DNA from: an uncultured Clostridia bacterium | GTDB taxonomy: Bacteria; Bacillota; Clostridia; TANB77; CAG-508 | NCBI GenBank assembly: GCA_944387495.1 | Contig: CALXFD010000003.1 | Location: 3,534-67,533 of the forward strand | DNA length: 64,000 nucleotides | Direction of reading: 5' to 3' | Part shown: in pieces, positions 7,442 through 63,449 of the stretch | Numbering within the stretch: position 1 is the first letter of the stretch | How the letters are laid out: each line of letters begins with the position of its first letter | The notes under the pieces: model-generated | What the model saw: the letters and a program-made list of their open reading frames with translations, nothing else | What the model was told of the DNA's origin: nothing | Databases searched by the model: none | Made by a program: the position numbers and the translations under genes

Positions 7442-8563
7442 ATGATGGATTACAATGAGGATAACAATGTTTCAATGATGGATGGAACAGCAACAATAAA
7501 AGTTATAGGTGTAGGAGGAGCAGGAAATAACGCTGTAAATAGAATGATTGATGCTGGAATAAAAGGTGTTGACTTTATTGCTGTAAATACAGATAGACAA
7601 GCTCTACAAACATCAAAAGCAAATACAAAAATTCAAATAGGAGAAAAAATAACAAGAGGATTAGGAGCAGGTGCAAATCCAGATATAGGAGCACAATCAG
7701 CAGAAGAAAGCAAAGCAGAATTATCAGAAGTATTAAGAGGAGCAGATATGGTATTTGTTACAGCCGGAATGGGTGGAGGAACAGGTACAGGAGCTGCACC
7801 AGTTGTTGCACAATCTGCAAAAGAAATGGGAATATTAACAATAGGTGTTGTTACAAAACCATTCACATTTGAAGGTAAAAAAAGACTTTCACAAGCAGAA
7901 AGAGGAATAGAAAGTTTAAAAGGTAAAGTAGATACATTAGTAGTAATACCAAATGATAAATTACTACAAATTATAGATAGAAAAACATCAATAATAGAAG
8001 CATTTAAAATGGCAGATGATGTTTTAAGACAAGGTGTACAAGGAATATCAGACTTAATTGCAATTCCAGGACTTGTAAACTTAGACTTTGCAGATGTTAA
8101 AACAATAATGCTAAATCAAGGAATGGCACATATGGGTGTTGGTAGAGCAGCAGGAGAAAATAGAGCAGAAGATGCAGCAAAACAAGCTATTCAAAGTCCA
8201 TTACTAGAAACATCAATCGAAGGAGCAAGAGGAGTAATAATAAACATTACAGGTGGAGAAGATTTAGGATTACATGAAGTAAATACAGCAGCAGAATTAG
8301 TACAACGCAGTGTAGACCCAGAAGCAAATATCATATTTGGTACAGTAACAGATCCATCAATGGAAGATGAAATCCAAATTACAGTTATAGCAACAGGATT
8401 TGAAAAACCAGAATCAATATCAAGTATTGGTGTAGATAATATGGTATCAAAAACATGGGAAAAGAAAATAAGCTCAATTCCATCAAGCTCAGAAGTAAGC
8501 TCGTCACAAAATGATTTAGACATACCATCTTTTTTAAGAAAAAACAAAAATAAAAGCTTATAA
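7442..8563 (+). CDS. ftsZ: cell division protein FtsZ
   Basis: GGGTGTG tubulin signature, [36 protein letters not shown]. Confidence 0.95.
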
Positions 8564-8565
8564 AA

Positions 8566-8695
8566 GTTAAATTGGGGACGTTTCTTTTTGGACATTTTTG
8601 ACCATTTGGGGACGTTTCCTTTTGGACAAAAATGTCCAAAAGGAAACGTCCCCAAATGGTCAAAAATGTCCAAAAAGAAACGTCCCCAATTTAAC
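8566..8695. repeat. perfect 130-bp palindrome (63-bp arms, 4-nt AAAA centre) made of tandem TTGGGGACGTTTCYTTTTGGACA units in a head-to-head arrangement
   Basis: Reverse complement of 8566-8628 equals 8633-8695 exactly. It starts 3 nt after the ftsZ stop. Related units occur at 18406-18450 and 35874-35924. Confidence 0.85.
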
Positions 8696-8870
8696 CTGTC
8701 CCCAAAAACTGAGCAATTTTTACTATTTTTAATGAACAAAATGTTCTAAATTATCGATTATTTCTTAATTTCTACAATAAGAAAAGACAGTATTTTCAAA
8801 TGAAAGGTAGTACAATAATACATGTATTTAACAAAAGATATTAAAACAAAGTTAAATATCAGGTGATAAG

Positions 8871-18405: not shown

Positions 18406-18450
18406 AACATTGGGGACGTGTCAAATCGTCTCAAAAAATCCATTTTTACG
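18406..18450. repeat. degenerate solo copy of the GGGGACG repeat unit (attggggacgtgtc..ccatttttacg)
   Basis: An 11/11 match to attggggacgt and a similar tail, in the divergent promoter region between the POR operon and the response regulator. Confidence 0.4.
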
Positions 18451-35180: not shown

Positions 35181-35873
35181 ATGATTTATTCAAAGGAATT
35201 AGAAGAAATGTGTACAGTTGCAAAAGGAGTTAATCATGGACCAGCACCAATTCCAGAAGAAGGAAAATGGGTTAAAGCAAAAGAAATAAAAGATATATCA
35301 GGATTAACACATGGTATTGGATGGTGTGCACCACAACAAGGAGCATGTAAATTAACTTTAAATGTAAAAGATGGAGTTATTCAAGAAGCATTAATAGAAA
35401 CAATAGGATGTTCAGGAATGACACATTCAGCTGCCATGGCAGGAGAAATATTAACAGGAAAAACAATATTAGAAGCACTAAATACAGACTTAGTATGTGA
35501 TGCTATAAACACAGCAATGAGAGAATTATTCTTACAAATAGTATATGGAAGAACACAAACAGCATTCTCAGAAGGAGGACTTCCAGTAGGAGCAGGACTT
35601 GAAGACTTAGGAAAAGGTCATACATCACAAGTAGGAACAATTTATTCAAGCACATTAAAAGGACCAAGATACTTACAATTAACAGAAGGATACATAGTAG
35701 AATTAGGATTAGATAAAGATGACCAAATCATCGGATATAAATATGTTCATATGGGAAAAATGATGGATAACATCAAAAAAGGAATGGACCCAATGGAAGC
35801 AATAGAAAAAGCTTCTGGTACATATGGAAGATTTAACGAAGCTGTTAAGAAAATAGACCCAAGAAAAGAATAA
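35181..35873 (+). CDS. NifU/IscU-like Fe-S scaffold-domain protein
   Basis: GWCAPQQGACKL and ETIGCSGMTHSAAMAGE resemble IscU cluster-ligand segments. ATG 35181 after AAAGGAG. Confidence 0.6.
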   Translation: MIYSKELEEMCTVAKGVNHGPAPIPEEGKWVKAKEIKDISGLTHGIGWCAPQQGACKLTLNVKDGVIQEALIETIGCSGMTHSAAMAGEILTGKTILEALNTDLVCDAINTAMRELFLQIVYGRTQTAFSEGGLPVGAGLEDLGKGHTSQVGTIYSSTLKGPRYLQLTEGYIVELGLDKDDQIIGYKYVHMGKMMDNIKKGMDPMEAIEKASGTYGRFNEAVKKIDPRKE

Positions 35874-35924
35874 TGTCCAATTGGGGACGTTTCTGTTTGG
35901 ACATTTTTGTCCAATCTGGGACAC
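35874..35924. repeat. solo copy of the GGGGACG repeat unit (tgtccaattggggacgtttctgtttggacatttttgtccaatctgggacac)
   Basis: A 31-nt near-identity to the 8566-8695 palindrome unit, including the ggacatttttgtcc hairpin. Starts immediately after the stop of the NifU-like gene. Confidence 0.65.
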
Positions 35925-35966
35925 ATCTATTATAAAAATAAACAAAATAAAATAGGAGGTATAAAA

Positions 35967-36968
35967 ATGGCAGTAACATTTGAAAGTTATGAAAGAAGAA
36001 TAGACCAAATTAAACCAGTAATGGAAAAATACGGAATTAAAGATTTTGAAGATGCATTAAAAATATGTACAGATAAAGGATTTAATCCATATGATATAGT
36101 AAAAGGAGTACAACCAATTTGTTTTGAAAATGCATGTTGGGCATACACATTAGGTGCTGCAATAGCAATCAAAAAAGGATGCACAAAAGCAGCAGATGCA
36201 GCAAAAGCAATAGGAGAAGGATTACAAGCATTCTGTATTCCAGGTTCAGTTGCAGATGATAGAAAAGTTGGATTAGGACATGGAAACTTAGCATCAATGC
36301 TATTATCAGAAGATACAAAATGTTTTGCATTCTTAGCAGGACATGAAAGTTTTGCAGCAGCAGAAGGAGCAATCGGAATTGCAAAATCTGCAAATAAAGT
36401 AAGAAAAGAACCATTAAGAGTTATCTTAAATGGACTTGGAAAAGATGCAGCACAAGTAATTTCAAGAATAAATGGATTTACATATGTAAAAACAGAATTT
36501 GATTTCTTTACAGGAAAAGTAAATATAGTAGAAGAAATACCATATTCAAAAGGAGAAAGAGCAGAAGTTAGATGTTATGGTGCAAATGATGTTAGAGAAG
36601 GTGTAGCAATAATGCACTTAGAAGGTGTAGATGTTTCTATAACAGGTAACTCTACAAACCCAACAAGATTCCAACATCCAGTTGCAGGTACATATAAAAA
36701 AGAATGTATAGAACAAGGTAAAAAATACTTCTCAGTTGCATCAGGTGGAGGAACAGGTAGAACATTACACCCAGACAATATGGCAGCTGGACCAGCTTCA
36801 TATGGTATGACAGATACTATGGGAAGAATGCACTCAGATGCACAATTTGCAGGTTCTTCATCAGTACCAGCACACGTAGAAATGATGGGATTAATCGGTA
36901 TGGGTAATAACCCAATGGTTGGAGCATCAGTTGCAGTAGCAGTTGCAGTAGAAGAAGCAATGAAATAG
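35967..36968 (+). CDS. GGGtGRT family protein
   Basis: Family-naming motif VASGGGTGRTLHP present. ATG 35967 after AGGAGG. Confidence 0.75.
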   Translation: MAVTFESYERRIDQIKPVMEKYGIKDFEDALKICTDKGFNPYDIVKGVQPICFENACWAYTLGAAIAIKKGCTKAADAAKAIGEGLQAFCIPGSVADDRKVGLGHGNLASMLLSEDTKCFAFLAGHESFAAAEGAIGIAKSANKVRKEPLRVILNGLGKDAAQVISRINGFTYVKTEFDFFTGKVNIVEEIPYSKGERAEVRCYGANDVREGVAIMHLEGVDVSITGNSTNPTRFQHPVAGTYKKECIEQGKKYFSVASGGGTGRTLHPDNMAAGPASYGMTDTMGRMHSDAQFAGSSSVPAHVEMMGLIGMGNNPMVGASVAVAVAVEEAMK

Positions 36969-36970
36969 AA

Positions 36971-37000
36971 TAAAAAAATGGGCAGAAGCCCATTTTTTTT
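36971..37000 (+). terminator. rho-independent terminator (aatgggcagaagcccatt + T8)
   Basis: Read directly. Confidence 0.7.
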
Positions 37001-56542: not shown

Positions 56543-57511
56543 ATGGAAAATAAAAAAGGATTAGTAGGAAATACTCCTATGATTAAAATTGATTATACAT
56601 ATGAAGGAAAAAGTAGATATATGTATGCAAAAATGGAAATGTATAATCTTACAGGAAGTATAAAAGATAGAGTAGCATACCAAATAATAAAAAATGCAAA
56701 ACAAAAAGGAATACTAAAAGATAAAATGCCAATAATAGAAGCAACAAGCGGTAATACTGGAATCGCATTATCTGCTCTCGGAGCATATTATAAACATCCT
56801 ATATATATATTTATGCCAGATTGGGCAAGTCAAGAAAGAATAAAACTTATGAAACAATATGGTGCAAATATAATTCTTATTTCAAAAGAAGAGGGAGGAT
56901 TTATAAGATGTGTAGAAGAAGCAAAAAAACTTGCAAAAGAGAAAAATGGATTTCTATCAAATCAATTTGCAAATGAGGATAATATTGTTGCACATTATGA
57001 AACAACAGGAAAGGAAATAGTAGAACAGTTAACTGAAACACCAGGAGCTTTTATTTCAGGAGTTGGAACAGGTGGGACATTAATTGGGATTGCAAAAAGA
57101 TTAAAAGAAAATTATAAAGATGTAAAAATAATAGCATTAGAACCAGATAAAATGCCGATGATATCAAAAGGGGAGGTATATGGTCATCATAAAATAGAAG
57201 GAATCGGAGATGACTTCATACCAGATTTATTTAATAAAAAATTGGTTGATGATTTTGTTTTAGTAAATGATGATGATGCAATTAATATGTCTAGAAAATT
57301 GGCAAGAGAACTAGGTTTAGGTGTGGGAATTTCATCAGGAGCAAATTTTATAGGAAGTGCTATAAAGCAAAATGAAATAGAAAAGCCAATAGTAACAATA
57401 TTTGCAGATGATAATAAAAAATATTTGTCAACAGATTTGAGCAAAGAGATAGATGAAAATAAGGACTTTTTGTCAAATAAAATAGAGCTCTTAGATTTTA
57501 GTGTAGTTTAA
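56543..57511 (+). CDS. cysK: cysteine synthase / O-acetylserine sulfhydrylase family (PLP-dependent)
   Basis: PLP-lysine motif SIKDR, and SGNTG. The last 37 nt lie inside the 86-bp inverted-repeat arm. Confidence 0.8.
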   Translation: MENKKGLVGNTPMIKIDYTYEGKSRYMYAKMEMYNLTGSIKDRVAYQIIKNAKQKGILKDKMPIIEATSGNTGIALSALGAYYKHPIYIFMPDWASQERIKLMKQYGANIILISKEEGGFIRCVEEAKKLAKEKNGFLSNQFANEDNIVAHYETTGKEIVEQLTETPGAFISGVGTGGTLIGIAKRLKENYKDVKIIALEPDKMPMISKGEVYGHHKIEGIGDDFIPDLFNKKLVDDFVLVNDDDAINMSRKLARELGLGVGISSGANFIGSAIKQNEIEKPIVTIFADDNKKYLSTDLSKEIDENKDFLSNKIELLDFSVV

Positions 57512-57784
57512 TTTGCCTGGTGGTGGAGCTTATAGTAAAAAAAATTTATTTAATCTTAATGTGCGAAGCGGAATAATTTAGAAGCTCTTTGCGAAATAAC
57601 TGGAATAATGTTCGTGTGAAATTTATTTCTAATAAATTTCAGCACAGAAAAAGGTTCCAGTTTTTCGCATAGAGATTCTTAATTATGTAGCTGAGCCGTT
57701 AAGATTAAATAAATTTTTTTTACTATAAGCTCCACCACCAGGCAAATTAAACTACACTAAAATCTAAGAGCTCTATTTTATTTG
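57474..57784. repeat. foldback structure: perfect 86-bp inverted repeat arms (57474-57559 and 57699-57784) around a 139-bp partly palindromic core with a central 11-bp hairpin
   Basis: Arms are base-for-base reverse complements. The left arm contains the cysK stop and final 12 codons. The core halves are about 70 percent mirror-similar. Confidence 0.9.
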
Positions 57785-57815
57785 GCAAAAAAGAATTCAA
57801 TTTTTGAATTCTTTT
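57785..57815. terminator. bidirectional palindromic terminator (aagaattcaa ttt ttgaattctt) at the 3' end of sigK
   Basis: Perfect palindrome flanked by A and T runs. Confidence 0.55.
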
Positions 57816-63408: not shown

Positions 63409-63449
63409 AAATTAATAATAAGTGTTAATAAAGAGGAGTTGAATAAATT

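Follow-up and report, generated by a model that had tools for sequence, protein, structure and literature searches.

A dispersed hairpin-forming repeat of uncultured gut Clostridia and its probable link to a RAYT-like Y1 transposase gene

Introduction

In an uncultured gut Clostridia bacterium, a short hairpin-forming sequence lies between a NifU-like gene and a gene of the GGGtGRT family, inside a putative operon and in direct contact with the stop codon of the first gene. This position raises the question of whether the sequence acts on the transcript of its neighbours or is one copy of a mobile repeat, and, if it is such a copy, to which enzyme the repeat belongs. A preliminary description, made from the letters of the window (the whole 64-kb stretch of DNA analysed here), had placed it in a dispersed family of the REP/BIME type. 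Here we describe the repeat in the window, its distribution and forms in related genomes, and the transposase gene that it brackets there.

Results

The repeat in the window

The NifU-like gene (35181..35873, + strand) ends in a TAA codon at 35871-35873, and the repeat begins on the very next base, 35874, as had been described. Its other end lay further downstream than first given. Because the conserved tail TGTCCAATCTGGGACACATCT (35908-35928) belongs to the element, the copy reported as 35874-35924 ends 4 bases later, at 35928. This solo full-length element (35874..35928, + strand, 55 nt) is situated between the NifU-like stop codon and the Shine-Dalgarno site of the GGGtGRT-family gene (35967..36968, + strand), which starts 38 nt downstream of it and is followed by an intrinsic terminator at 36972-36999. 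Nearly all genes of the window are on the + strand. Pfam supported the gene names used in the preliminary description, with 661 bits for the GGGtGRT gene, a weak NifU_N match for the NifU-like gene (21.7 bits against a cut-off of 22), and matches for SpoIIGA, POR and the response regulator.

Read 5' to 3', the solo copy has the order TGTCCAA-TTGGGGACGTTTC-TG-TTTGGACA-TTTT-TGTCCAA-TC-TGGGACACATCT. The conserved core TTGGGGACGTTTC (35881..35893, + strand) contains a GGGGAC motif related to GGGGWSAS. Folding placed a central hairpin, TTGGACA-TTTT-TGTCCAA, at 35897..35914 (+ strand), with stems at 35897-35903 and 35908-35914. In the RAYT loci described below, the 3' tail GGGACACATCT (35918..35928, + strand), the reverse complement of which carries an ATG, is turned towards the transposase gene. 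Five GGAC-type motifs, spaced about 9-14 nt, can be read by eye in each element, and the G+C content of the solo copy, counted by hand, is about 44%, compared with about 27% for the AT-rich window. Folded as RNA, the solo copy formed two hairpins with a minimum free energy of -19.8 kcal/mol (z = -3.15), in agreement with the TTGGACA/TGTCCAA hairpin noted before; folded as DNA, it gave about -9 kcal/mol (z about -3).

Two other identities were considered for the element and rejected. TGGACA resembles a -35 box of an outward promoter, but there was no -10 box at the right spacing and a promoter scan showed no excess. The reverse strand reads AAACGTCCCC, which recalls the CGTC-tagged REP superfamily, but here CGTC lies inside a loop and not at an unpaired end before an 8-9-bp stem. 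The repeats of that superfamily are without a transposase (PMC3733652), which also counts against this identity.

The recurrence of the repeat in the window was borne out. The 13-mer TTGGGGACGTTTC matched exactly five times (8572+, 8606+, 8643-, 8677- and 35881+) and once more, at 18410+, with one mismatch; the six matches with up to one mismatch compare with 0.01 expected from shuffles, and the eight with up to two mismatches with 0.26 expected. The solo copy scored 42.5 bits against the repeat-arm profile (E = 4e-11), and 35872-35922 was 84% identical to 8563-8613. Minus-strand open reading frames over the repeats, already suspected to be artefacts, received no support from a codon-usage gene caller.

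Four of the exact matches belong to a perfect palindrome at 8566..8695, which starts 3 nt past the stop codon of ftsZ (7442..8563, + strand; Pfam). It is 130 nt long, with 63-nt arms that are 100% complementary around a 4-nt loop, and it consists of four arms of the repeat (8567-8597 and 8599-8629 on the + strand, 8630-8661 and 8664-8695 on the - strand), so arranged that it resembles a REPIN or a cluster. An extra GGGGACAG module at 8697..8712 on the minus strand (TTTTTGGGGACAGG) is the outer 5' module of the right-hand arms. The folding energy of the palindrome was -112 kcal/mol (z = -21). Many bacteria cannot maintain a perfect 130-nt palindrome with a 4-nt loop, owing to cleavage of the SbcCD type. 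The complete identity of the arms suggests recent formation or ongoing hairpin-templated correction. In another sample, a contig (L257, 1723-1830) ends inside the ftsZ-downstream palindrome, with the same structure. For many homologs of the transposase described below (clusters P0002-P0005 and others) the only source is a contig of about 1 kb; the repeats are probably points at which assemblies break.

A degenerate copy had also been reported at 18406-18450, in the divergent intergenic region between POR and the response regulator. Here a relic of the core (CATTGGGGACGTGTC, 18408..18422, + strand) held, and the longer copy did not. The recognisable stretch comprised only about 12-17 nt (ACATTGGGGACGTGTC), the repeat profile gave a 12-nt match with E = 3.7, and no fold signal was seen at 18406-18450 (z = 0.17). 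Because a core match of 12/13 is improbable by chance (0.01 expected), we read this stretch as, at best, a decayed relic of the element. The sole related locus (L032) was not syntenic on that side, and no full-copy ancestor was traced.

A separate inverted repeat was noticed at 57467-57559 and 57699-57791 of the window. Its 93-nt arms are 99% complementary and are separated by a 139-nt spacer; it lies between a gene for a PLP-dependent enzyme and a convergent sigma-70-family gene, its left arm overlapping the last 45 nt of the former. This segment (57467-57791) could be invertible or cruciform-forming.

The family across genomes

Further copies were found in related genomes. In an exact search with one genome per species, at least 118 stretches, spread over 38 species-level MAGs, contained a 23-nt core. 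The hosts among the matches listed were all uncultured Clostridia, Clostridium, Eubacteriales or Bacillota gut MAGs, and the closest relatives of the window among them had genes about 88% identical at the nucleotide level. The 23-nt core had no match in viral contigs, and the family is therefore not phage-borne. Rfam searches of the whole window at gathering thresholds returned only two tRNAs, and a search with the solo copy at E up to 1 returned only a meaningless miRNA match.

Sites were defined with the arm profile and a codon-usage gene caller, which gave 153 sites in 118 loci plus the window. Although 83.5% of this DNA is coding (16.5% non-coding), 141 of the 153 sites (92%) were intergenic. 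Within co-directional spacers, 47 copies were sense and 45 antisense to transcription, and tandem, divergent and convergent spacers were used roughly according to their availability. The density in the window, two sites and one relic in 64 kb, corresponds to about one site per 30 kb.

Alignment of 141 copies gave a unit consensus that begins with TGTCCA, or with its inverted form GGGACA, and continues as n-TTGGGGACGTTTC-nn-TTTGGACA-TTTT(T). Beyond this the unit ends in one of three ways: in a "full" tail, GTCCA-nnn-TGGGACACATCT, as in 57 of the 141 copies including the solo copy of the window; in a reverse-complement arm, which produces a tight palindromic doublet; or in unrelated sequence, which gives a "short" form. 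The GTAG tag was absent from the consensus, and GGGAC/GTCCC-type motifs were conserved in its place. As read from the alignment, the unit is a string of GGAC-type modules in alternating orientation that would be able to pair in several ways.

All 15 intergenic regions with two arms had a + arm followed by a - arm, convergent with the 5' ends outward. Five tight +- doublets were found, together with the ++-- palindrome of the window. No decayed partner arm was seen beside 82 of 89 single copies, and the singles are therefore not simply broken doublets.

Filled and empty sites

Ten site clusters contained an empty ortholog, the filled and empty members of each pair coming from different species. 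In the radA-disA spacer, L046, L119 and L122 have the element and L101, L126 and L128 lack it; at a tRNA-proximal site, L094 has it and L053 and L097 lack it. A full element at 4625-4678 of L074 directly abuts the Shine-Dalgarno site of the gene that follows, and the orthologous spacer of the window, at 63416..63439, is empty. Three states were found downstream of ftsZ: the window has the four-arm palindrome, L079 has one full copy with a separate terminator behind it, and in L049 the site is empty.

The NifU site itself was identical to the window in L131 and L136, and in L063 the element was present with its 5' module inverted. Relatives with an identical GGGtGRT protein had no element at this site and carried other genes instead. 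In L132, L134 and L135 (620-1000, orthologs of window 35874-35966) a 107-aa gene stands upstream of the identical GGGtGRT gene, and in L133 (295-982) the same position is held by an NTP_transf_2 and NTase_sub_bind pair, which is toxin-antitoxin-like. The spacer before GGGtGRT is a hot spot of gene-content variation.

No target-site consensus was seen at the filled and empty junctions, and no target-site duplication at seven such pairs. These junctions bear on the idea that the copies are MITEs of a DDE-type insertion sequence, as the arm pairs, which look like terminal inverted repeats, might suggest; a duplication is lacking, and the only gene bracketed by the arms encodes a Y1 HUH enzyme and not a DDE transposase. 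Ordinary intrinsic terminators are the companion idea. A loose terminator scan did flag two small hairpins in the solo copy, but no U-run comes after the main hairpin, the second operon gene lies directly behind the copy, neither orientation prevails among the copies, and the operon has its terminator elsewhere, at 36972-36999. We find it barely credible that the copies are either terminators or such MITEs.

A Y1 transposase gene bracketed by the repeat

A Y1 HUH protein of 256-265 aa was encoded in 3 of the at least 118 core-bearing loci. It matched Pfam Y1_Tnp with E = 5e-17, and the best NCBIfam model was REP_Tyr_transpos (REP-associated tyrosine transposase) at 73.9 bits, just under the cut-off of 80, with IS200 at 25.9 bits. 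A protein search with this sequence returned 415 homologs, for which the few source names read "transposase [Clostridia bacterium]" or "REP element-mobilizing transposase RayT". Four more lineages, with proteins 58-80% identical and DNA fetched independently, brought the comparison to seven lineages.

In all seven, inverted copies of the element lie on both sides of the Y1 gene, with their ACATCT ends facing it and their TGTCCA/GGGACA ends outward, the arrangement also found in the two-arm spacers. The gene order, small ORF - RAYT - radA - disA, was likewise constant in 7/7 lineages, and the longer loci add mreB and a radical-SAM gene upstream of the Y1 gene. The Y1 gene is, to judge from these sequences, vertically inherited at a single locus. 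The 64-kb window contains no transposase gene. For the window organism the link to the enzyme would thus run through its relatives, of which the nearest (about 88% nucleotide identity) has the bracketed gene, and the solo copy of the window aligns base for base with the repeats that bracket the RAYT gene of this nearest relative (L046).

In L128, the lineage that diverges most, the gene is flanked by another repeat (GGGGACAGTCCCC...), which reads GGGGACAGTCCCCATGC...TGTCGCAT.GGGACAGA. A third copy of this variant occurs in another spacer 2 kb away, and the variant was absent from all other loci (133 of the 136 fetched). Its confinement to the most divergent lineage argues that repeat and enzyme diverge together. 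A 22-mer of the variant found no match in metagenomes, but its shorter palindromic core did. This 19-nt palindrome, CATGGGGACAGTCCCCATG, occurred in at least 120 JGI metagenome contigs (L137-L256) of 40-73% G+C, in several extended repeat contexts and often several times per contig. It adjoined RAYT-like genes in six contigs, whose products were 33-44% identical to the Clostridial protein. With so many contigs of varied context, six of them with a RAYT-like neighbour, the motif class is therefore widespread.

The HxH and Y-x-H-x-N-P motifs of the protein were invariant in 23-30 homologs. A single-sequence search of the transposase against PDB sequences gave nothing relevant, whereas the family profile had as its best, though weak, match 4ER8, the E. 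coli TnpA-REP. An AlphaFold model of the Y1 protein (pLDDT 86.6) had as its top Foldseek match 4ER8_A, TnpA-REP with a REP hairpin (E = 8e-7, TM 0.71 on the target), followed by the TnpA proteins of IS608, ISDra2 and IS200. The approximately 100 extra C-terminal residues were modelled as helical (pLDDT 84-91), and HTH_23 and HTH_28 matches in this part were sub-threshold (E 0.0025-0.14).

The HTH-like extension, together with the five GGAC-type motifs per element at intervals of about 9-14 nt, would also suit a system in which a host protein that binds double-stranded DNA, for example a nucleoid-associated protein or the Y1 protein itself in a regulatory role through its HTH, occupies the copies, and in which they organise or regulate the chromosome without transposing. 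The invariance of the HUH and Tyr residues speaks instead for a probable nuclease or transferase activity, and the presence/absence polymorphism and palindromic doublets are typical of mobile repeats. We therefore hold the binding-site interpretation to be highly improbable, and favour a repeat that serves as the substrate of the Y1 enzyme.

Polarity towards gene boundaries

The 5' (TGTCCA/GGGACA) end was nearer a gene than the 3' end at 97 of 119 single-arm sites (p = 2e-12), and the polarity persisted after orthologous sites had been merged (84/104, p = 1.6e-10). The 5' end was flush with a boundary at 48 of the 119 sites, compared with 3 for the 3' end. These boundaries were stop codons at 27/119 sites (TAA followed by TGTCC, TAG by GGAC); at about 21 sites the boundary was the complement of a Shine-Dalgarno site (CCTCCTT followed by TGTCC). 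At one further site the 5' end abuts the 5' end of a tRNA gene. About half of the copies abut gene starts and not stops. Flush contact with stop codons has already been reported for GTAG REPs (PMC3733652); the contact of the Clostridial family with start-side signals is less usual.

At five independent sites the element was found between a Shine-Dalgarno site and the start codon, namely at radA in two lineages, at lepA, at der and at one other gene (L101 3740-3830, L122 3780-3860, L104 1274-1360, L012 and L020/L037/L068). In each of them the Shine-Dalgarno site is correctly spaced from an ATG in the AGATGT end of the element. The resulting upstream ORF (MCPxMDKNVQTETSPNG...) ends 10-40 nt past the element and overlaps the true start; at lepA, instead, it reads in frame with the gene and adds 15 or 23 codons to it. 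These observations allow a joint reading, which we offer as a speculation and consider unlikely: the 5' end would be placed at a stop codon, a Shine-Dalgarno site or a tRNA 5' end, or would be ratcheted there by transposase-driven adjacent deletions, and at radA, lepA and der, all essential genes, translation would begin from the ATG inside the element, coupled through a conserved upstream ORF of 20-30 codons or as an in-frame N-terminal extension.

The same contacts could indicate that the element is primarily a cis-acting RNA, a 3'-end stabiliser, intercistronic attenuator or translation modulator kept for its effect on the flanking genes. Its position inside a putative operon, its good folding (-19.8 kcal/mol, z -3.15), the 5' ends flush with stops and Shine-Dalgarno sites, the well-placed internal ATG at the five start-side sites and the known occurrence of classical REPs near stop codons (PMC3733652) are all consistent with such a function. 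Against these stand the balance of sense and antisense copies, the use of tandem, divergent and convergent spacers according to availability, the same site being empty in close relatives, the separate canonical terminator after the element in L079 and the lack of an Rfam match. A primary function as RNA thus seems improbable to us. Because orientation is neutral (45 versus 47), half of the copies are at gene starts and the site is dispensable in relatives, an RNA-level role would be at most a side effect, and the family is explained without it.

Discussion

We conclude that the sequence at 35874-35928 is probably one copy of a dispersed, non-autonomous REP/REPIN-like (TIR-type) family of AT-rich uncultured gut Clostridia, that the same holds for the arms of 8566-8695, and that the family is tied to a Y1 HUH gene of the RAYT/TIRYT kind. 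The assignment to the REP/BIME-type class of dispersed, hairpin-forming, stop-proximal repeats has stood up: the family occurs in at least 38 genomes, is 92% intergenic and often flush with stop codons, and flanks a REP-type transposase gene in all seven lineages compared.

By analogy with E. coli TnpA-REP and the TnpA of IS200/IS605 (PMC3333891, PMC8266576), the enzyme would recognise the folded single-stranded element by its hairpins and GGGAC-type motifs. By cutting and rejoining the element it would insert copies into intergenic DNA or take them out. Between the NifU-like and GGGtGRT genes the copy would be a passenger, co-transcribed with the operon and able to form hairpins of about -20 kcal/mol; should it alter the stability of the mRNA or the coupling of the two cistrons, this would be a secondary effect.

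The system is REP/REPIN-RAYT-like, with the TIRYT/TIRtron class and the GGGGWSAS-bearing Y1 subclass 2.1 as its nearest counterparts, and is thus a known kind in an unusual host group. In TIRtrons, the gene for a long Y1 protein with an HTH tail, TIRYT, is flanked by inverted repeats in which GGGGWSAS recurs (Di Nocera et al. 2013, PMC3733652), and TIRYT was later equated with subclass 2.1 of the Y1 HUH proteins (Quentin et al. 2018, PMC6006769); their C-terminal domain is of the Bac_DnaA_C, HTH_23 or HTH_28 type (PMC3733652, PMC6006769). The Clostridial system shares the long Y1 protein (256-265 aa), whose helical C-terminal extension, with its sub-threshold HTH_23 and HTH_28 matches, may be HTH-like. 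Its flanking inverted repeats carry a GGGGWSAS-type motif, either GGGGACAC, found in the downstream RAYT-flanking repeat of L119 and in tails of L012, L020, L037 and others, or GGGGACAG, found in both RAYT-flanking repeats of L128, and they come from a moderately abundant family that occurs as singles, dimers and clusters. It differs from TIRtrons in its AT-rich Clostridial hosts, in a 55-nt composite unit of five GGAC-type modules, in a core motif, GGGGACGT, that departs from GGGGWSAS at position 7, and in many tails with only three Gs (GGGACAC). The likeness to subclass 2.1 is drawn from protein length, the possibly HTH-like tail and the flanking motif, and Quentin et al. reported no REP-like sequences near subclass 2.1 genes (PMC6006769).

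Compared with the REPIN-RAYT systems of Pseudomonas, Enterobacteria and Neisseria (PMC3116915, PMC5581495, bioRxiv 10.1101/2021.07.10.451892), we found the same single-locus transposase in kept synteny, flanked by its own repeat, the same extragenic repeats, often as inverted doublets able to fold into a long hairpin, and the same shift of repeat sequence with transposase lineage. The Clostridial system, however, is without a GTAG tag, its protein is about 100 aa longer, and its density is moderate in comparison with Pseudomonas REPINs, which typically number hundreds of copies. E. coli TnpA-REP (PMC3333891, PMC8266576; 4ER8) was the best structural match to the predicted model, with conserved HUH and Tyr residues, and the REP/BIME system shares a hairpin-forming putative substrate and a REPtron-like bracketing of the gene. 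Sequence identity to the E. coli protein is, however, 16%, at 256-265 aa versus 165 for 4ER8, and the E. coli REP is a 35-40-nt bulged palindrome preceded by GTAG, whose BIMEs bind IHF and gyrase. IS200/IS605 elements and their miniature derivatives have the same catalytic fold and ends with subterminal hairpins; unlike them, the Clostridial gene is at one conserved locus per lineage examined, apparently neither multi-copy nor mobile, there is no tnpB, and the element is far shorter than an insertion sequence.

The preliminary description had recognised no named family. This holds for the Clostridial repeat, of which no published description was found in the literature searched and which is absent from the reports of PMC3733652 and PMC6006769. 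It does not hold for the kind of repeat, which has been named through the TIRYT/TIRtron GGGGWSAS repeats and Y1 subclass 2.1. Bertels et al. placed Clostridial RAYTs in Group 1 and linked abundant repeats only to Groups 2 and 3 (PMC5581495).

Work on REP/REPIN-RAYT systems has been confined almost entirely to Proteobacteria, and surveys list Clostridial RAYT-like genes without a repeat family (PMC5581495, PMC6006769). The present case spans dozens of species of gut Clostridia and combines a transposase at one locus with repeats that bracket it, dispersed copies, a repeat and an enzyme that diverge together, and filled and empty sites. It extends the REP/REPIN-RAYT picture to Gram-positive anaerobes and offers a concrete candidate substrate for long Y1 proteins that end in an HTH tail, a group of which little is understood. 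In practice, the repeat accounts for spurious ORFs and probably for contig breaks in these MAGs, and it is a possible strain marker. Its polarity towards gene boundaries gives a starting point for asking how repeats of this kind select their sites or stay at them, and, if the joint reading given above were true, gene boundaries and translation initiation in this clade would include a transposase-linked repeat as an integral and polar component.
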